Origin: Longimicrobiales bacterium | GTDB lineage: Bacteria > Gemmatimonadota > Gemmatimonadetes > Longimicrobiales > Gaopeijiaceae | Assembly: GCA_965248195.1 (NCBI GenBank) | Contig: CBDFIQ010000002.1 | Coordinates: forward strand, 2,880,001-2,944,000 | Direction of reading: 5' to 3' | Length of the DNA: 64,000 nucleotides | Part shown: one piece after another, positions 5,860 through 15,531 of the stretch | How positions within the stretch are numbered: position 1 is the first letter of the stretch | How the letters are laid out: each line of letters opens with the position of its first letter | The notes under the pieces: generated by a model | The model's input: only the letters and a program-made list of their open reading frames with translations | Databases searched by the model: none | Told to the model about the DNA's origin: nothing | Position numbers and translations under genes: made by a program

Positions 5860-7362
5860 TCAGCCGTCCACCACGCGAAGAGCGCCGGCCATTTCGAGCA
5901 GGGACTCGACCATCCCTTCGTCACCATAGACGTCGGGCACGCCGGAGACGGGCAGCCCTACGGAACGCCCCGCATCGGCCGTCGTCGGTCCGACACCGAA
6001 GATCTGCACACCGTCGAGGTCCACCCCGGACGAGGCCAGTGACTTCGCCGCCGAAGGGCTGTACAGAAGCACTGCATCCACCCCCCTTTTAAACGCGTCC
6101 AACGCGGCGTCATTCGGCGGCTGGAGCAGCGTGTCATACACATGGAGGGTCTGGACTTCCAAACCCACCCGAGTCAACCCGTGGGAAACCTCCTCGACCG
6201 CGAGCGTCCCGCACGGGAAGAGTACCCGCTCGCCGCTCTTCGCCTCGACCCCGATCGCCTCCACGAGAGCTCTAGCTCGATACTCTCCCGGGATCAGGTC
6301 GGCACGGATCCCCGCACTTTTTAGGCCGGCCGCCGTCTTGGGACCGACCGCGGCGATCCGAGCCGCTCCGAAGAAGCGGGCGTCGAGTCCCTGACGCTCA
6401 AGCTGGCGGACGAGTCCCTCGACCCCGTGCATCGACGTGAACACCATCCAATCGTGGTCGGAGCGCGGCTCCGAGAGCTCCGCCTCGAGATATTCAATAC
6501 GGATCAGCGGTGAGTCGATCACCTCCGCTCCGAGCCCTCGAAGCTTCGAAATGACTTGCCTGCTCGCGAAGGAGGGCCGGGTCACGACCACTCGGCGGCC
6601 TGCCAGAGGCCCGAAGCCCACAGCCGGCTTATTGCCGTCGAGGCGGGCCAACCCGGCGCCCGGACCCACGATCAGCACCATCGGCGCTCGCAGACCCTCG
6701 TCGCGGACGATGCCCGCAATGGTGGCAAGGGTCCCCCGGACCTGACGCTCCCCAGGGAGCGTGCCCTCTTGCACGACCGCAGCGGGGGTCGCAACGCCCC
6801 GACCCGCGGCCATCAGGCCATCCGTCACCTCCTCCAACCGAGCGCCGCCCATGAGCACGACCGCGGTGTCCATTTTCGCCATCGCGGCGTACGGGAGATC
6901 GCGGGCCGGAAGGCCCTTTCCGACGCTCGGCGTCACTATACTCACCGTACTCGCGTGTCCGCGCAGCGTGAGCGGGATGCCGGCCCCAGTAGGTACCCCG
7001 GTCGCGCTGGTCACGCCTGGAACCACCTCACAGGGGATACCAGCCAGATAGCAGGCCTCGATCTCCTCCCACCCCCGGCCATAGATAAAGGGATCGCCGC
7101 CCTTCAGGCGGACCACCTCCTTACCGGCCCTGGCCCGCTCGATCAGGACCTCGTGGATCCGGTCCTGAGCCACCGTGTGCTGACCGGGCGCTTTGAAGAC
7201 ATCGATCAGCTCGGCGCCGGGCCTCGTGAGGGTCAAGAGCTCGGCACCGGCGAGCCGATCAAAAACGACCACATCGGCCCGCCCGAGAAGCTCCTGGCCG
7301 CGAACCGTGATGAGCCCCGCATCTCCGGGCCCCGCACCGACCAGCCACACCCGACCAGTCAA
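5860..7362 (-). CDS. cobA/hemD: Fused uroporphyrinogen-III C-methyltransferase / uroporphyrinogen-III synthase
   Basis: VWLVGAGPGDAGLIT, VVRLKGGDPFIYGRG, VVPGVTS; then HemD-like RVVVTRP, VFTS, AAVGPKTA. TTG start at 7362 overlaps the upstream stop (TTGA). Confidence 0.92.
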   Translation of the reverse strand: MTGRVWLVGAGPGDAGLITVRGQELLGRADVVVFDRLAGAELLTLTRPGAELIDVFKAPGQHTVAQDRIHEVLIERARAGKEVVRLKGGDPFIYGRGWEEIEACYLAGIPCEVVPGVTSATGVPTGAGIPLTLRGHASTVSIVTPSVGKGLPARDLPYAAMAKMDTAVVLMGGARLEEVTDGLMAAGRGVATPAAVVQEGTLPGERQVRGTLATIAGIVRDEGLRAPMVLIVGPGAGLARLDGNKPAVGFGPLAGRRVVVTRPSFASRQVISKLRGLGAEVIDSPLIRIEYLEAELSEPRSDHDWMVFTSMHGVEGLVRQLERQGLDARFFGAARIAAVGPKTAAGLKSAGIRADLIPGEYRARALVEAIGVEAKSGERVLFPCGTLAVEEVSHGLTRVGLEVQTLHVYDTLLQPPNDAALDAFKRGVDAVLLYSPSAAKSLASSGVDLDGVQIFGVGPTTADAGRSVGLPVSGVPDVYGDEGMVESLLEMAGALRVVDG

Positions 7363-8120
7363 GGTACCGAGAGCGTGCCCGAATCGATCGCTTCGAGGGT
7401 GAGCGAGGCCAACTCCGGCCACTCCAATATCGGCGGAAGGATCTTCAGGGTCTGCGGAAGGACCTTGAGGCTCGCCAGCGCGCGGCCGAGCCTTGAGAAC
7501 GTTCGGTGTGCGGTCAGGGCTTTGGCAAGATCGACCAGCACATGTCGTCCGCCTCCAAGGAGCAATGGAACGGCCACGACCGGGCGATCGCCGAGTGAGC
7601 CGGCAACGTCCGAAAGGTATGGAGATTCATCGAGAAAGGCGGTGAGAATCTCCGTACACGGAAAGGTGAGCGCCAGTTCGTCCCGAACCCACCGAGCCGC
7701 ATCCCCGCTCGAACGGACTCGCGTGGTACCATGCCCCACGAGCAGGACGACTGGATTCAGTCCCCGGCGGGTCATGTCCGTCACCGCCTCGCCCACCTTG
7801 GTCGCCAAAACGCGGGGAAATGCTGGAAGTGTGCCGATCGGAGGGGCAATCACGAAAGAACGCGACGGATCCCCCTTCGCCCATTCCTCCGGCAGGCGCC
7901 GTCGTGCGTAGTACCCACCGCTCGCCATGATCGGCACCACCACGGGGTCCTCTCCCCGAGAGCTCCGGGCTGCATCCTCAAAGCTCGGTGTGCCCTTCCA
8001 AAAGGCACACCCGAAGCGAACCCCGGGCCGGGCCTCGCGCAGGGCGTCCGCGAGTTCCAGGAGCGCCCGGTTGGCCGCCGAGCCATCGCCCGCGCCGTGC
8101 GCCGCGAGAATCACGCTCAT
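7359..8120 (-). CDS. Sirohydrochlorin chelatase, CbiX/SirB family (two domains)
   Basis: ILAAHGAG...AN, VVVPIM, second domain LLVGHGT...AFLDESP...VPLLLGGGRHV; siroheme operon context. Confidence 0.82.
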   Translation of the reverse strand: MSVILAAHGAGDGSAANRALLELADALREARPGVRFGCAFWKGTPSFEDAARSSRGEDPVVVPIMASGGYYARRRLPEEWAKGDPSRSFVIAPPIGTLPAFPRVLATKVGEAVTDMTRRGLNPVVLLVGHGTTRVRSSGDAARWVRDELALTFPCTEILTAFLDESPYLSDVAGSLGDRPVVAVPLLLGGGRHVLVDLAKALTAHRTFSRLGRALASLKVLPQTLKILPPILEWPELASLTLEAIDSGTLSVP

Positions 8121-8457: not shown

Positions 8458-9093
8458 CTACCCGGCCGCCGAGCGAGCTCCGCTCACGAGCTCTTCGAGA
8501 GTCCATTCCCCCTCGCCGACCACCCTCATATGGAGCGTCAGCGGCCCCCGCTCGTGACCGACTCTTTCAAACTCGATCGGAACCCGGCCATAGAGGTCTG
8601 CCAAAACGTTTTCGAGTTCAGGGGTGACCTCTTCGAAGGCGGCCTCCGTCGCCGGTACGGCAAGACGATCCGTAAAACGAAAGACCATCTCATGCGTCGC
8701 AAACCGCACGGGGTTGTCCCCGGCGGTATCCTGCTCGAGTGCGGCAGCGGCCTCGAGCACGCTCACGATCGCCTCCCGTAAACGCTCGGCCAGAGTCCCC
8801 GACCCCTCCCTCTTCAATTCGTACTCGAGCCCGATACGGCCACCCGCTTCGTCCGTGCGGAGGTGCCACTCATGAGCGATCAGAAGCACTCCGGGCCCCT
8901 CCGGGACATGCGTGTAATCGTGGACGTCGACGAGCGTCCCCGGGAGACGGTCCTCCTGAATCCAACGGTGAAACACCTCGATCACCCGAGCCCGGTCGAA
9001 AGCCTCCTGGTCCTCGACGAAGACCTTCACCCCCAACCTTTGGGGCTCTGAAAGGACCCGAGCGCCCACCTCTGGCGCCGCCTGAGCGCTCAT
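8458..9093 (-). CDS. Hypothetical protein translationally coupled to the sulfite reductase
   Basis: 211-aa ORF with ATGA overlap to the reductase stop; protein-like sequence (VFHRWIQ...VDVHDYTHVPEGPGVLLIAHE). Confidence 0.75.
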   Translation of the reverse strand: MSAQAAPEVGARVLSEPQRLGVKVFVEDQEAFDRARVIEVFHRWIQEDRLPGTLVDVHDYTHVPEGPGVLLIAHEWHLRTDEAGGRIGLEYELKREGSGTLAERLREAIVSVLEAAAALEQDTAGDNPVRFATHEMVFRFTDRLAVPATEAAFEEVTPELENVLADLYGRVPIEFERVGHERGPLTLHMRVVGEGEWTLEELVSGARSAAG

Positions 9094-11375
9094 ACCGATA
9101 CCGTCTCGGCGGTCCGAACGTGGTACGAGTGGGCGGCCTCGATAAAGAGTTGGGCCTCTTCAATTCGCTGGCGAGCCCGCTCAGGCGTCGCGTCGAACCC
9201 ATTGCTGCCCTCGCCGTGCACGCGGAACAAATAGTTTCCGAACTTTCCTCCCGCGTAGGGATCGTGGAACAGGCCTGGGTCATAGAGATGGGTCTTGAAG
9301 GCGGCAACCACGTCGTCGGGATCTTCGCCGAGCCCCACCTCTTTCTCGCGCACCAGAGTTCTCGCCGCGATCAGCATCGCACGGTAGGCGATATCGGCTG
9401 CGCCCGTGGAATCCCCTTGATCCAGCCGATCCTGAGCGTCGAAGACCTCGCGCTCGCTGGCCTGAAGGCCGAACTCGACCGGCGAGACGATCTGGCCGGC
9501 ACACTCACCGATGCCCATGTCGCCCAGTGTGAACTCTCGCGGATCCCCCCAATTCGAGTAGAAGCTGCGGTCCTCCTCGTAGGTGGGCACTTCGACCAGA
9601 TCCTCTAGAAGGGTCCTGAGGCTGGGCTTACCCACACGGGTGACGAAGGCCTTGAAGCTCTCATCCCCCTCGCGCTCATCAACGTAATACTGGGTGATCC
9701 TGTCCGTGGCGGCCGGGATGTTCCGCCCCGGCACGGCGACAATGGCCAGACCATACGCTCCGGCGTTCTCGGCCCATTGGCCGCCCAGCACGATCTGGAA
9801 GTGCGGCACGTTGTATCCGTTGCGCTTTCGGCTCACGCCCCAGAAACCGATGTCCGCCATATGATGCTGCCCGCAACTGTTGAAGCACCCGCTGATCTTG
9901 ATGCGCAACCCCCGCACCACTTCATCCAACTCCCCGTTGCGCTCCTCCAAGTGCTCCATGAGCGTACGCGCCAGACCACGCGAGGATGCGATGCCGAGCT
10001 TGCACGTGTCCGTCCCGGGGCAAGCCGTGATGTCCGTGAGCGTCTCCGCCCGCGCCTCTGCGAGACCGAGCTCGTCCAGGGCGTCGTGTAGAGCGGCGAG
10101 GTCGCTCTCCCGCACCCAGCGAAAAGCCATGTTTTGCTCGACGGTCATTCGGACCGCGTCGCCGGTAAAACGCCTCGCCACGTCCGCGAGGCCCCGCATC
10201 TGATCGGCCGTGATATCACCGAGAGGCAGGTAGACCATGACCACCTTGTAACCCGGCTGCCTCTGCGGGGCCACGTTGGAAGCCAGCCACGCCGCCAACT
10301 GTGGACTCGGCGTGAGCTTGTTCGGCTCCTCGATTTGCCAGAGCGGCCCATCATGACCCTCGTGGACACCTGGAAGGAAGGCGGTCCACCGGGGATCTTC
10401 GGACAGCCCCGCGCGGTCCTCCAGGACGAGGCGCCGGAACTCCTCGATGCCGAGCTTCGCGACGAGGAACTTCAAGCGGGCGCGGGACCGAACATCTTTT
10501 TCCCCCAGACGAGCGAACACTCGAGAGATCGACTGACAGATCGGAAGCAGCTCCTCTTCGGGCAGAAACTCGTCGAACAGCTCCGCCTGGTGAGGAACGG
10601 CCCCCAGGCCTCCGCCGACATAGAACTCGAATCCACGCCGCTCTACCCCAGCCACCTCCCGAACTCGGGCGATTCCACCGAAGTCGTGCATCTTGACGAG
10701 TCCGCAGGGACGGTCGCCACATCCGGAAAAAGCGGGCTTCACCTTTCTTCCGAACTCCTGAGTATCCGGGTGTCCGAGAAGGAAATCGCTGACGGCGGTG
10801 GCGTAGGGGGTGACATCGAACGTCTGTGTCGTGCAGACTCCCGAGAGGTGGCAAGCGGTAACGTTTCTTACGACGTTGCCGCACGCCTCAAGGGTCGTGA
10901 TCCCCACAGCGCCCAGCCGCCGCATCAGATCCGGGGTTTCTTCGAGGTGCACGAAGTGCAACTGGATGTCTTGCCGCGTCGTTACGTGTAGGATCGCGTC
11001 CGCATACTCCTCGGAGACCTCCGCCAGCGCGTCCATCTGATCGGCACTGACCGAACCGAACGGATTCTTGATACGCACCATGCCCGGCGCATCCCACTGC
11101 GTACCCGGGCCCTTGGTGAGCTCGGCGTTCGGGAAGACCAGTTCCCTCGAGTTAAACCCATCGTGGCGCTGGCCGTTGTCGTACCGCTGGCCGTAAACGC
11201 CCCGGCGTAGGCGCATCTCCGCGAAGACCTCATCAGTCAGTTTTCCCTCGCGCTTCTGCTCTATCTGTCCCTCGAAGGCATCGATCTCACGCGAAAGCTT
11301 GTCGCCGACAAGCGATCCGAGCCTTCCCTTCCACTGCCGTGGCTCCGAGGTCTCAAGCTTACCGTTCGTAGTCAT
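9090..11375 (-). CDS. Siroheme/[4Fe-4S] sulfite (or nitrite) reductase with a C-terminal extension (HEPN-like)
   Basis: RLRRGVYGQR, HVTTRQDIQLH, ACGNVVRNV, ACPGTDTCKLG and SGCFNSCGQH ligand motifs. Upstream Cys leaders favour sulfite as substrate. Confidence 0.9.
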   Translation of the reverse strand: MTTNGKLETSEPRQWKGRLGSLVGDKLSREIDAFEGQIEQKREGKLTDEVFAEMRLRRGVYGQRYDNGQRHDGFNSRELVFPNAELTKGPGTQWDAPGMVRIKNPFGSVSADQMDALAEVSEEYADAILHVTTRQDIQLHFVHLEETPDLMRRLGAVGITTLEACGNVVRNVTACHLSGVCTTQTFDVTPYATAVSDFLLGHPDTQEFGRKVKPAFSGCGDRPCGLVKMHDFGGIARVREVAGVERRGFEFYVGGGLGAVPHQAELFDEFLPEEELLPICQSISRVFARLGEKDVRSRARLKFLVAKLGIEEFRRLVLEDRAGLSEDPRWTAFLPGVHEGHDGPLWQIEEPNKLTPSPQLAAWLASNVAPQRQPGYKVVMVYLPLGDITADQMRGLADVARRFTGDAVRMTVEQNMAFRWVRESDLAALHDALDELGLAEARAETLTDITACPGTDTCKLGIASSRGLARTLMEHLEERNGELDEVVRGLRIKISGCFNSCGQHHMADIGFWGVSRKRNGYNVPHFQIVLGGQWAENAGAYGLAIVAVPGRNIPAATDRITQYYVDEREGDESFKAFVTRVGKPSLRTLLEDLVEVPTYEEDRSFYSNWGDPREFTLGDMGIGECAGQIVSPVEFGLQASEREVFDAQDRLDQGDSTGAADIAYRAMLIAARTLVREKEVGLGEDPDDVVAAFKTHLYDPGLFHDPYAGGKFGNYLFRVHGEGSNGFDATPERARQRIEEAQLFIEAAHSYHVRTAETVSV

Positions 11376-11470
11376 CGGGTTCCCTTTTCCACTCCCATTC
11401 TATTCAAGCATCCAAGTAGCTGGCGCTCCGCTATCGGTTTCAGCATGCTGTTTTCCATAGATTGTGACCC

Positions 11471-11502
11471 AAAAAAAGCCGCGACCCTCGAGGGGCCGCG
11501 GC
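11471..11502 (-). terminator. Intrinsic terminator of the proximal attenuator
   Basis: Minus strand GCCGCGGCCC-CTCGA-GGGTCGCGGC followed by T7. Confidence 0.88.
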
Positions 11503-11526
11503 GTCCGCCTGAGTCTTCGCTTCTCG

Positions 11527-11610
11527 TCAACGACTCGTCGGAACGCGCCCCTCTCTAGGCGTGACCAGGCAACAACAACAGCAACAACACATGGCCGTCA
11601 GTGGAGTCAT
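11527..11610 (-). CDS. Poly-cysteine leader peptide MTPLTAMCCCCCCCLVTPREGRVPTSR (proximal attenuator)
   Basis: ATG 11610 with GAGG upstream; seven consecutive Cys codons TGT TGT TGC TGT TGT TGT TGC (11589-11569); TGA 11529-11527; GAGGGGCGCGTTCCG is complementary to the terminator 5' arm. Confidence 0.85.
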   Translation of the reverse strand: MTPLTAMCCCCCCCLVTPREGRVPTSR

Positions 11611-11702
11611 TTCCCAAGCCTCGAGATTTTCAGGGAACCGCACGTTTCGTATACCTCGTCCTAAGTTTGGGAATTACATACCTGAGTGCCCAAACCGCCG
11701 TG

Positions 11703-11834
11703 TCACTTCTTGTCCGGCGGTGACCTGAGGATAGCCTTCGCGACGTTCTCCGGGGTGTCCGGTATCTTCCGTTGCTGCGTATTGATGTCGTAGTCGTGCT
11801 TCGGCGGCCTGCCGGGCTTCTTCTTGTCTGTCAT
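11703..11834 (-). CDS. Small basic 43-aa protein at the IS end (MTDKKKPGRPPKHDYDINTQQRKIPDTPENVAKAILRSPPDKK)
   Basis: Manual translation; starts 12 nt after the endonuclease stop with AGAAGGG upstream; ends just inside the TIR; AT-hook-like KPGRPPK. Confidence 0.55.
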   Translation of the reverse strand: MTDKKKPGRPPKHDYDINTQQRKIPDTPENVAKAILRSPPDKK

Positions 11835-11846
11835 GTCGTGGCCCTT

Positions 11847-12806
11847 CTATACGGCGTGAATGGTGGCGAATGGTGGTTTGTCCTTCAGCTTCCTCGTCAT
11901 AGACGCCAACGACGGAAGATGCGGCGTGCCCAGAATCTCCAGCCAACACCGCCGGTCTCCGTTCCTTGCACGAATCGGGCCTGCATAAAGCGCGAGTGGT
12001 CCGTTCAAATCCGCTACGATCATGTTGACTTCATCAGGCGTCCAGCCTGGCGAAGTCAGATCGTCTAGTGGCAACACGGTTTGTGTACGAATGTATTCCG
12101 CGAGCAAGTCCTGCACGATCCATATAGTGCGACCGCCCCAGCTATTCGCGGCCTCCGACTTGGCGACAAGTTGCGATGCCATACGCGCCCACACTTGCCG
12201 CGTATTGACGCCGGGAGAGCGAACGGCCTCATTGGCTGGCGTATGCGCGAATAGTACAGCCCTCTTGAACGCCGCCTGTATATCGGTGCCCATCTGCCTA
12301 TTCCCACCGGACGTAGAGCACGTCATGACTTCCACGATGATAGGTGCCGAATCGTCCTCCAAGCCTCGCAATACATAATCAAGACGGTAATTGAACGTCC
12401 CGCCACTTCCTTTCTCTCTTAACGAGATTTCCGACCACACAGACACTGGTTCGCCCGCTTGAAAACCCGCGAGGCGAAACACCCGCTTGGCTAGTTCGTG
12501 ATGTTTGGCCGAAATTCCCTGCGGTCCGAACGCGAATAGGCGGTGAGGGCAGATGGCCCAGACCTTGCCCCGTGCGAAGCGAACCGAGCAAATGCCGCAG
12601 GGCAGCCAGCCGCCCGTCTCCGTGCCCACGGAAGACGAAAATAGATGCCCAAGCGACTCATCCGATGACCGTACTCGCGCCATATCTCGATTTCCGCCAC
12701 CATCACAAACAGACTCGGTGAACGGACATCGGGCCTTCCGGCAAGCATCCCCGTCCATGCCGGACTCTTCGAGCGGCTGTCCATACAACTCTTCCACTAC
12801 AGGCAT
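11847..12806 (-). CDS. Type II restriction endonuclease, NotI-like family
   Basis: N-terminal ELYG...CPF...C...CSV...ICPHR metal-binding Cys pattern; PD-(D/E)xK-like LDYVL...IIVEVMT; overlaps the methyltransferase stop. Confidence 0.75.
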   Translation of the reverse strand: MPVVEELYGQPLEESGMDGDACRKARCPFTESVCDGGGNRDMARVRSSDESLGHLFSSSVGTETGGWLPCGICSVRFARGKVWAICPHRLFAFGPQGISAKHHELAKRVFRLAGFQAGEPVSVWSEISLREKGSGGTFNYRLDYVLRGLEDDSAPIIVEVMTCSTSGGNRQMGTDIQAAFKRAVLFAHTPANEAVRSPGVNTRQVWARMASQLVAKSEAANSWGGRTIWIVQDLLAEYIRTQTVLPLDDLTSPGWTPDEVNMIVADLNGPLALYAGPIRARNGDRRCWLEILGTPHLPSLASMTRKLKDKPPFATIHAV

Positions 12807-13831
12807 AGTGTCTCCGCGACGGCCTTCGCCATTGGTGGCGGGACCGCGTTGGCTACTTGGCGATGCTGGTCAAGGTCACGCACGGAACCCGACCTACCAC
12901 GAATGGGGCCAGTAAAGACGTACGTATCAGGAAAGCCCTGTAGGCGCGCCGCCTCTCGGGGCGTGACGTACCTATCATCGGTCGGATGGTAGGGCGCTTC
13001 CCCGCAGCGCAGCGTAGGCGCGAACGACGAACGGTCGAGGCGGCGAAACTTCGTCGTGTCCTTACGTGTGAGCTTCTTGATAATGTCCGGTGGCGCATCA
13101 GGACACTTCGATAACCATAGCCCTTCCGGCACGAAGGATATGCGCTCCCTGTCTCTCGCTGGCGTTATGTCAATGTGGTTCGGCAGTGCCGGGTTTCCAT
13201 CTCGCAGCACGGGGTCTGGCATCTTGCTCAAGGCGTCGCCTACGGTCCGCCGAACCCCGTTTCCCAACGGGAAGTCGAACTGCACATCTTCACCGGGAAG
13301 GAACACAAGAAAAACGCGCTCACGGTTCTGGGGCAGACCATAGTGCAATGCGTTCAGAGTACGAACATGCATCTTGTAGCCAAGCTCTTGAAACTCCGAC
13401 GCGAGCATATGGACGGCCCGCTGTCCATCCGGCATCATCGCTCGCAAGAAATACGGAACCTGCTCTATCATGACGGCCCTGGGGCGGAAGACATCCGTAA
13501 ATCGCACCATGTCGAAAATCAGCATCCCTCGCGGGTCACTAACTCCGTTGCGCTTCCCGATCTGGCTGAACGGCTGGCATGGGGGACCGCCATGGAGAAG
13601 CCCTAGATCGCCTTTACTCATTCCGAGAAGGTCACGCATTCTGTCAGCATCAACCAACCGGACATCGACGTTCCAAACCGTCTTCTTGCGAGCGTTACGC
13701 CTGAGTGTGGTGGCGCAATGCGGATCAAAATCGATGGAGCAAACCGTTTTGAACCCAGCCTGATCCACACCAATGTCCATGCCGCCCGCCCCCGCGAATA
13801 AGCTCACTGCGCTTCCGCGATTCCGCATCAC
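12797..13831 (-). CDS. DNA (cytosine-5)-methyltransferase
   Basis: Motifs I SLFAGAGG, IV GGPPCQPFS, VI IEQV, VIII QNRERVF, IX TPREAARLQGFPD, X QVANAVPP. Confidence 0.93.
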   Translation of the reverse strand: MMRNRGSAVSLFAGAGGMDIGVDQAGFKTVCSIDFDPHCATTLRRNARKKTVWNVDVRLVDADRMRDLLGMSKGDLGLLHGGPPCQPFSQIGKRNGVSDPRGMLIFDMVRFTDVFRPRAVMIEQVPYFLRAMMPDGQRAVHMLASEFQELGYKMHVRTLNALHYGLPQNRERVFLVFLPGEDVQFDFPLGNGVRRTVGDALSKMPDPVLRDGNPALPNHIDITPARDRERISFVPEGLWLSKCPDAPPDIIKKLTRKDTTKFRRLDRSSFAPTLRCGEAPYHPTDDRYVTPREAARLQGFPDTYVFTGPIRGRSGSVRDLDQHRQVANAVPPPMAKAVAETLCL

Positions 13832-14784
13832 GCGACCAGTTCCCGGTAGCGGAGCCGTCCGCCGACCAGCCCACGCGCCACCGCGCCCATCTGGTCCAGC
13901 GTGTCTAGCGGTCGGTCGTTGAAGCGTCCGGCGAACTCCGCGACATAACGGTCCAGATGCTTCGGGCTCATGTGGTGATAGGTGCCGTAGTAGCCGCGCT
14001 TGAGGAGCGCCCAGAACGATTCCACGCCGTTCGTGTGGGCTTGGCCGTTCACGTACTCCCTGACGCTGTGGCGTACCGTAGCGTGCTCGTAGTCGCGGGA
14101 GAGCCCACCGTAGCCGCCATGGTCGTCCGTGTAGACGGTGGACCCGGCCTCGGCGTGGTCGGCAACGAACCCCGTCAGCGTCTCACCGTCTACACGATCC
14201 ACCACGCGAGCGGCTACCTGCTTCGTCTCGCGATTCTTCGCGCCAGCCACGGCGGTCTTGCCAACCGGCCCACGGCCAGCCCGTAGCTTCTTGCTCCCGT
14301 GCTTGTTCCGCTCCTTGCCGCCTATGTACGTCTCATCGACCTCGACGGGACCGGAGAACGGGGCCGGGGCGGTGCGCCACGTCTGGCGGATCCGGTGCGC
14401 CAGATGCCAAGCGGTCTTCTGCGTCACACCCAGATCACGGTGCAGCTTCATGCTGCTGGCTCCCTTAATGCCGGTCGTGAGGATGTAGATCGCGACGGCC
14501 CACACCTGATAGCCGAGCTTCGTGTCTTCCATCGCCGTGCCGACCCGTACGCTAAACCGCTTGCGGCACGACCGGCAACGGTAGGGCATCGTCGGGTGCT
14601 TCGCGCCCATTTGCACGTTATCCGACGCGCAATGCGGGCAGACCGGAGAGCCGCCCCAGCGCTGTTCTGCGAACCACCCTTCGGCAGCTTCGTCGCTCGG
14701 GAATATCCGCATCAACTCCACCCATGACAGCCCTTCGCGCTCCGCCCGTCCGGGGCCGCCGTTGTACTTGCTGTTGCCGCTCAT
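13828..14784 (-). CDS. IS1595-family transposase
   Basis: Zn-ribbon CPHC...YRCRSC, HTH SSMKLHRDLGVTQKTAW, DDE core VEVDETYIGG...VYTDD...NGVESFW. Confidence 0.95.
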   Translation of the reverse strand: MSGNSKYNGGPGRAEREGLSWVELMRIFPSDEAAEGWFAEQRWGGSPVCPHCASDNVQMGAKHPTMPYRCRSCRKRFSVRVGTAMEDTKLGYQVWAVAIYILTTGIKGASSMKLHRDLGVTQKTAWHLAHRIRQTWRTAPAPFSGPVEVDETYIGGKERNKHGSKKLRAGRGPVGKTAVAGAKNRETKQVAARVVDRVDGETLTGFVADHAEAGSTVYTDDHGGYGGLSRDYEHATVRHSVREYVNGQAHTNGVESFWALLKRGYYGTYHHMSPKHLDRYVAEFAGRFNDRPLDTLDQMGAVARGLVGGRLRYRELVA

Positions 14785-14921
14785 CTCTATGCTCCGCAAT
14801 GTGTTATCCTATATTGGTAATATAGTACCCATCACGGAGGGTCGCAAGGGGTTTGGGTACTCAGGTATGTAATCCCCCTAAGTTTCGGGTCTTTCCATTC
14901 CCGGTCTCACCCGGTTCGAAC

Positions 14922-14953
14922 AAAAAAGGCCCTCGGGAAAACCCGGCGGCCTC
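14922..14953 (-). terminator. Second, weaker terminator-like hairpin downstream of the distal attenuator
   Basis: Minus strand GAGGCCGCCGGG-TTTT-CCCGAGGGCC then T6; stem has a 2-nt internal mismatch. Confidence 0.6.
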
Positions 14954-14975: not shown

Positions 14976-15003
14976 AAAAAAGCCACCGAATGTCTCCGGT
15001 GGC
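14976..15003 (-). terminator. Intrinsic terminator of the distal attenuator
   Basis: Minus strand GCCACCGGA-GACA-TTCGGTGGC then T6. Confidence 0.85.
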
Positions 15004-15031
15004 GTTTCAGGGAACCTCGTCGCGTGTATGC

Positions 15032-15127
15032 CTATACGACGTCTCCCCGATACCCCACCGGGCTCGGACAAGAACATCGGCAACAACAACTCTCGAGCAT
15101 CATGACCCGCATCCTTTTACAACACAT
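15032..15127 (-). CDS. Cys-rich leader peptide MCCKRMRVMMLESCCCRCSCPSPVGYRGDVV (distal attenuator; alternative starts 15112 or 15103)
   Basis: 7 Cys in 31 codons (5 Cys if it starts at 15103, which has AAGGA upstream); TAG 15034-15032; CCGGTGG...GGGGAGAC is complementary to GTTCCCTGAAACGCCACCGG, which overlaps the terminator. Confidence 0.78.
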   Translation of the reverse strand: MCCKRMRVMMLESCCCRCSCPSPVGYRGDVV

Positions 15128-15157: not shown

Positions 15158-15185
15158 ACGCTAACCGCCCGAAGTCCCCTGTCAA
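15158..15185 (-). promoter_or_regulatory. Sigma70-like promoter for the distal leader
   Basis: TTGACA (15185-15180), 16-bp spacer, TAGCGT (15163-15158). Confidence 0.6.
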
Positions 15186-15531
15186 GAGATGAGCGAGCCG
15201 GGCAACCGCCTAATGGGCCACGGTGCCGTCGGGTTCCAGACCCTCGATCCGGCATTCCAGACCCTCGATGCGGCCCGGGGTGCGCCCCTTGCTTGTGCAG
15301 AGCTTCTCTAGCGACTCGCGCATCTTCCACCCATAATTGCGCCACGGCAGCGCCGAGGGCGGACCGCCACGGAGGTAGACCACGGTGTTCAGGGGGGGTG
15401 TGTTGACGATCTTCGGCCCGATTCGTGTAAGCGGCTATGCATCCGGAGTCGGACCCTGTCGCTGTACCACGCCCCCTGGAGCGGCCGCCTCGTGTTTACC
15501 CACGACGCCGCACGGGGGGATCGGCTAAGGC

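Follow-up and report, generated by a model that had tools for sequence, protein, structure and literature searches.

Why should an operon built around a siroheme reductase be preceded by a tiny open reading frame with seven cysteine codons in a row? The window studied here, that is, the whole 64,000-nucleotide stretch of Longimicrobiales DNA, holds such an arrangement on its minus strand. The most probable answer, to which I give a probability of roughly 0.8, is that the C7 ORF, a competing hairpin and a terminator make up a transcription attenuator read by Cys-tRNA (unit B), which acts after a second unit (A) lying upstream. The C7 leader unit is real, and a regulatory role for it is very likely. 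Unit B has the following parts:

11527..11610, minus strand: leader ORF B, 27 codons, MTPLTAM-C7-LVTPREGRVPTSR
11569..11589, minus strand: sensor codons of leader B, seven Cys (five TGT and two TGC)
11529..11553, minus strand: 5' strand of antiterminator B, formed by distal leader codons and beginning 15 nt past the last Cys codon
11490..11521, minus strand: 3' strand of antiterminator B, overlapping the terminator 5' arm and loop
11471..11502, minus strand: intrinsic terminator B, a 10-pair stem at 11502-11478 (nine G-C, one G-U) followed by T7

The initial annotation had described most of this layout, and its landmarks hold. The minus-strand MTPLTAM-C7 ORF is found at 11610-11527 with its Cys codons at 11589-11569, the 10-bp stem and T7 are located as it said, with 95 nt from the T-run to the reductase ATG (11375), and both segments of the pairing that it proposed (11553-11539 with 11507-11490) are in place, the antiterminator being longer than then described (11553-11529 with 11521-11490). 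A Shine-Dalgarno-like GAGG lies upstream of the ORF at 11622-11619, and translation might alternatively begin at an in-frame GTG at 11643. With the ORF and GAGG conserved in six copies, leader B is probably translated. In the sequence the Shine-Dalgarno-like site, Cys run, antiterminator and terminator follow one another in that order, with the leader stop codon at the antiterminator apex, and the antiterminator is left free by a ribosome on the sensor codons and covered by a ribosome at the stop codon. When Cys-tRNA is short, the ribosome would stall on C7 and leave the distal leader free; this would capture the terminator 5' arm while the 3' arm is still to be transcribed, and polymerase would read through. 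When Cys-tRNA is plentiful, the ribosome would reach the stop codon at the hairpin apex and melt the hairpin, and the terminator would form.

The genes that such a switch would control are these:

11376..11470, minus strand: terminator-reductase spacer, a candidate cysH deletion scar; relatives carry cysH there
9090..11375, minus strand: NirA/Sir-type siroheme reductase, 761 aa, with NIR/SIR domains; sulfite is the probable substrate from context
8458..9093, minus strand: conserved 211-aa protein, directly after the reductase in relatives
7359..8120, minus strand: CbiX/SirB-type chelatase (PF01903)
5860..7422, minus strand: CobA-HemD fusion (siroheme precursor synthesis), by profile matches

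The reductase reached no NCBIfam cut-off, and no family cut-off establishes sulfite specificity for it; its closest named records come from Longimicrobiales, of the phylum Gemmatimonadota, and among solved structures the best relative is one titled NirA, 1zj8, which I take to be a sulfite reductase. No Pfam or NCBIfam match was found for the 211-aa protein. A full reductase gene is present in 8 of 11 same-genus genomes, and in seven of those eight cysH lies directly upstream, a neighbourhood that favours sulfite as the substrate. The Cys leaders, too, support sulfite over nitrite as the likely substrate of this NirA-type enzyme. In this genome (assembly 91.8% complete) PF01507, the cysH family, gave no match and no PAPS/APS reductase family member was found, and the interval 11376-11470 looks like the scar of a cysH deletion. 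One relative (G006, locus L030) has also lost cysH, with a different junction, the first cysH codons running in frame into the reductase. This genome encodes an Xsc over cut-off (G000:C2:322083-323780) and a Sat-type ATP sulfurylase (C2:906626-907270). Xsc frees sulfite from taurine-type sulfonates; it is thus a sulfite source that bypasses cysH, and the operon can presumably still be useful without that gene.

How likely is it that unit B is a chance arrangement? In the 4.86 Mb genome, both strands counted, four or more Cys codons follow one another in 13 places; the run is four codons long in 12 of these, and leader B, with seven, is the sole exception. In three regions that I inspected, the other four-Cys runs were off-frame inside other genes or without an attenuator layout, and a genome-wide scan for short ORFs followed by terminators gave two Cys-rich matches, leaders A and B. 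The same scan found one His-rich leader with a terminator, MNTSIRHHRHHHHHPLPERLAGAVPLS, at G000:C2:2832569 (+), outside the window; it may be leaderless, and the gene after it is presumably hisG. In the interval 11300-11900 no Rfam family reached its gathering score, T-box, SAM riboswitches and known leaders included, and there were five weak matches.

The single pieces are less telling. Terminator B has a computed energy of -20.8 kcal/mol, and the hairpin by itself is within chance (three found, against 1.4 +/- 1.3 in shuffles), as is the overall fold of 11460-11625, which is no better than shuffles (z -0.82). The case therefore rests on the combination of elements. A two-strand duplex test of antiterminator B gave p 0.15, with 21 of 41 non-cognate segments doing as well. 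Since that test ignores intervening helices, a test against the shuffled distal leader was added, and here antiterminator B stood out (p 0.04 and 0.03; p <=0.04 in all six B copies).

Comparison of the B copies gives further support. All six full-length copies keep the Cys run, the Shine-Dalgarno-like site, the antiterminator and the terminator, with paired states in 98.3% of cells for the terminator and 98.4% for the antiterminator, where changes are one-sided only. Two-sided changes number none in the six B copies and one in 10 A copies, counts that are uninformative on copies this close. In four distant cysH leaders of the same layout, read by eye, CCGGGG/CCCCGG replaces the GAGGGG/CCCCTC basal helix of B. 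The search of orthologous loci suggested by the initial annotation thus turned out in part as it had hoped: Cys runs and stems are kept, but compensatory stem changes are absent among close B copies.

These comparisons also bear on whether ORF B simply encodes a small Cys-rich peptide that binds metal or thiols and ends at a terminator of its own, the operon having a separate transcript. The conserved Shine-Dalgarno-like site and open frame and the strength of terminator B would suit such a gene. The number of Cys codons, however, ranges from 4 to 8 among five leader B homologues, codons 2-7 vary freely among aligned copies, no promoter-like site was found between terminator B and the reductase, and shuffled versions of the distal ORF pair less well with the terminator arm than the real one, all of which makes this explanation extremely improbable.

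Is the predicted switch energetically reasonable? The initial annotation had advised folding the leader with ribosome-position constraints, and the outcome was divided, with unit A switching at equilibrium while in unit B the terminator stays favoured. During a Cys stall the equilibrium probability of terminator B is 0.71-0.99 when the RNA behind the ribosome is included; with only the downstream RNA folded, the value is 0.43 for this genome, and the homologues give 0.00, 0.12, 0.75, 0.92 and 0.96. In B the terminated form is more stable than the antiterminated one by 2-12 kcal/mol, and the computed barrier between them is 16-18 kcal/mol. Because the terminator is favoured at equilibrium, switch B would have to be kinetic, a co-transcriptional trap, and in the folding model such trapping is plausible, since the antiterminator is fully transcribed by the time polymerase reaches the terminator 3' arm.

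Attenuator B is the second of a pair. Unit A lies 3.5 kb upstream, with two terminators and a conserved promoter-like site:

15158..15185, minus strand: promoter-like site, TTGACA-16 nt-TAGCGT
15032..15103, minus strand: leader ORF A, 23 codons, MMLESCCCRCSCPSPVGYRGDVV
14996..15061, minus strand: antiterminator A, 15061-15037 pairing with 15022-14996 around an apex that holds the stop codon
14976..15003, minus strand: terminator A1, stem 15003-14982 followed by T6
14922..14952, minus strand: terminator A2, stem 14952-14927

Unit A switches even at equilibrium: the probability of terminator A2 is 0.01-0.36 with the ribosome on codons 6-11 and 1.00 from codon 13. Once freed, the 3' arm of A1 is able to bind the 5' arm of A2, so that in the model both A terminators open together, and this relay helix linking A1 and A2 is kept in 10 of 10 sequences. 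None of the 10 aligned sequences departs from either hexamer of the promoter-like site; a promoter consensus scan did not flag the site. A 20-nt direct tandem duplication lies upstream of it, at 15234-15274 of the window. At another locus (L046:3917-4057) leader A has gained one base, which throws its last codons out of frame and moves the stop by two codons, and the hairpins are kept.

All eight relatives with a full reductase gene have unit A. Unit B is complete in four of them (G001, G006, G007 and G011); in G010 it is truncated within the Cys run, and G004, G005 and G009 lack it, although a remnant of the terminator survives in one of these three. These different junctions suggest that an ancestral B was lost repeatedly. 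Outside the genus, unit A DNA was found at full length in one of 301 genomes, plus one 33-nt match. One genome carries two copies of the A+B leader with cysH, 26 kb apart (L122 and L128), and in L122 the gene after cysH belongs to the CMD family and is not a reductase.

In relatives units A and B adjoin, and there a single transcript from the upstream promoter-like site would have to pass A, with its two terminators, and then B. In the present genome a mobile element has come between them:

11669..14877, minus strand: IS1595-family element, 3209 bp, single copy, with 28-nt inverted repeats
14819..14847, minus strand: promoter-like site within IS1595, facing leader B; weak, one found against 1.8 expected

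The family assignment follows from a transposase (14799-13828, an NF033547 match over cut-off), the terminal inverted repeats and an 8-bp target duplication at 11661-11668 and 14878-14885. Target duplications of 8 bp are typical of the IS1595 family. As passengers the element carries a C5 cytosine methylase (13831-12797) and an ORF with a weak type II restriction endonuclease match (12806-11847), and it also holds a 43-codon ORF at 11834-11703. DNA contigs from two of the four sequencing runs examined, out of 21, (X15 and X16) skip exactly 3217 bases at this point, one of them with three differences in 251 letters, which means that near-identical strains are without the element.

The initial annotation had read this locus as a stand-alone attenuator of the his/trp type. 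The order and overlap of the elements agree with that geometry, but unit B does not stand alone, since unit A and the promoter-like site lie upstream of IS1595. With the element in between, B would act on transcripts that have passed A and 3.2 kb of IS genes, or on transcripts that start inside the element. This raises the question of whether B still works at all: after the insertion and the loss of cysH it might be a relic of an ancestral attenuator, mainly a constitutive terminator of transcripts from the IS, with the reductase operon nearly silent. The element does separate the promoter-like site from B, no cysH was found in the genome (91.8% complete), terminator B dominates at equilibrium, and four of eight relatives dispense with B. 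Yet all elements of B are intact, the ORFs of the operon downstream of B are all open, and the Xsc described above offers sulfite by another route. Furthermore, the minus strand from 14847 to 11502 has no predicted terminator, and an RNA-library contig with one difference in 230 spans terminator B into the start of the reductase, although it could be DNA and the RNA-library evidence consists only of Logan contigs, from which neither transcript ends nor strand nor level can be read. On balance I regard a relic as unlikely and think that transcription probably continues across IS1595 into B.

If B is a working attenuator, is it a peculiarity of this genus? A draw of 401 genomes from the phylum gave 53 that matched cysH, and the best 30 loci of these were examined. 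A Cys leader with a terminator lies at most 1 kb upstream of cysH in 18 of these best 30 Gemmatimonadota loci, and in 17 of 17 closer cysH loci, many of which are close kin and some of which overlap with the 30. Controls at the cysH loci gave no sense-strand leader for any of 11 other amino acids and no antisense Cys leader. Among the 12 misses, eight have a Cys-rich ORF and a hairpin by eye, with a poorer U-tract. The claim of Cys-sensing attenuation made in the initial annotation is thus supported by comparison, in the six of six B copies and in the specificity of the cysH leaders, as a prediction from sequence. From the stop codon to the T-run, 50 of 52 leaders measure 47-75 nt, where 35-120 nt was allowed. 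One of the 52 (L054, with no CCC, a weak hairpin and a position far from the gene) was dropped before the pairing tests, and the remaining 51, which belong to 19 sequence groups, are not independent of one another. In these tests 18 of 51 reached p <=0.05 by the two-strand duplex, and only 27-28 of 51 beat shuffles. RNAalifold on MAFFT alignments recovered the antiterminator in one of four groups, and single-sequence folds were read by eye. At more distant reductase loci (n=68) seven have such a leader (three in Gemmatimonadota, two in Acidobacteriota, one in Entotheonella and one in another bacterium) and 61 have none in the DNA examined.

Some loci have two Cys leaders each, with cysH behind one and a cysG-like gene behind the other (L111:558-659 and L111:3167-3316; also L129), as though each sulfur transcription unit had its own. 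At another (L077:4645-4900) just one Cys leader is present, and behind it stand two terminator hairpins in tandem, nearly identical to each other.

It could also be that what stalls the ribosome is the nascent peptide or some signal linked to cysteine, such as tRNA thiomodification or thiol redox, the RNA switch remaining unchanged. The distal peptide TPREGRVPTSR is nearly invariant across B copies, as a stalling peptide might be, and Met codons are mixed with Cys codons (MCCAMCC, CCCM) in many phylum leaders (L131, L132, L135, L146, L148 and L154-L173), some of which may sense both sulfur amino acids. The distal conservation, however, reaches third codon positions (91-100% identical in five homologues) and matches base pairing; four-fold sites of the reductase are 62-78% identical in four of the same five. 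Across the 19 sequence groups the leader peptides differ widely while the Cys run stays, and TGT accounts for 135 of 176 sensor codons against 3271 of 8957 (37%) Cys codons in the long ORFs of this genome, a bias that points to decoding. Stalling by peptide or by another signal is thus very unlikely, and Cys-tRNA is the probable signal. The broadest version of the Cys-tRNA reading, namely that terminator attenuation of sulfur assimilation occurs phylum-wide and that the A+B stack with its three terminators multiplies the response, I consider an even bet.

If true, cysteine and sulfur assimilation would join the textbook list of terminator-type leader-peptide attenuators, and Cys leaders would mark genes serving cysteine supply in these uncultured bacteria. 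Close relatives naturally carry alleles with one unit or with two, so that this series of attenuators for a single signal would provide a test of how stacking affects dynamic range, and the loss of B, the loss of cysH and the IS1595 insertion would be natural experiments. The insertion would also put a methylase/nuclease pair inside the cysteine-controlled transcript of this strain.

How does this compare with known systems? The initial annotation knew of no intrinsic-terminator Cys attenuator on such an operon in this kind of organism. An intrinsic-terminator Cys attenuator has in fact been predicted for another gene and lineage: the uORFC-8-2 motif, a Cys uORF and intrinsic terminator before cysS in Rhodobacterales (Brewer et al., 2021; PMC8632094). 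As far as the accessible text of that paper goes, it shares with the present case a predicted Cys-codon uORF, an intrinsic terminator and ribosome-mediated attenuation, and it has two tandem Cys codons, occurs before cysS only and is a single unit. The leaders described here, unlike uORFC-8-2, have 4-8 Cys codons and lie before cysH, the reductase or cysG in Gemmatimonadota, and are thus set apart by gene, lineage and Cys number. On sulfate or sulfite assimilation operons I found no terminator-type Cys attenuator, nor any attenuation study in Gemmatimonadota, in a literature mostly of papers outside subscription, main texts only. No relevant cysteine passage was found in PMC2965389 or PMC8079986. 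With that prediction for cysS in print, I can point only to the target, the lineage and the tandem layout as features that I did not find described elsewhere. They comprise the phylum-wide sulfur-assimilation target, two units for the same signal with three terminators between them, and natural alleles of these units; the mechanism as such is classical.

The precedent for poly-Cys sORF control in actinobacteria and mycobacteria, which the initial annotation had noted, is confirmed in the accessible text of two sources. Canestrari et al. (2020; bioRxiv 10.1101/834739) report from experiments that polycysteine leaderless sORFs in mycobacteria stall ribosomes and regulate operons related to cysteine, and Seliverstov et al. 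(2005; PMC1262725) predicted Cys leaders without terminators in Actinobacteria; PMC13236596, in the part available, merely cites the mycobacterial work. The present leaders likewise place a Cys run before a cysteine-related operon. The mycobacterial sORFs, as described there, are leaderless and act on translation by sequestering the Shine-Dalgarno sequence, without a conserved terminator. Unlike them, B has a conserved Shine-Dalgarno-like site and an intrinsic terminator, and a putative promoter lies upstream of unit A.

Two attenuators in one leader are known from the Salmonella mgtCBR operon, where two short ORFs are each coupled to attenuation (PMC3641672). According to the accessible text the mgtCBR units read different signals, ATP and proline, whereas here both units carry Cys runs. 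The closest likeness is to the classical trpL and hisL leaders, whose mechanism is summarised in the accessible part of bioRxiv 10.1101/834739: as in these, a short ORF with a run of end-product codons and an antiterminator overlapping an intrinsic terminator precede a biosynthetic operon. The two-terminator relay of unit A resembles the his attenuator, which has a multi-hairpin design. Unlike trpL and hisL, the leader proposed here would read cysteine, and it would do so through two leader ORFs and three terminators in series.
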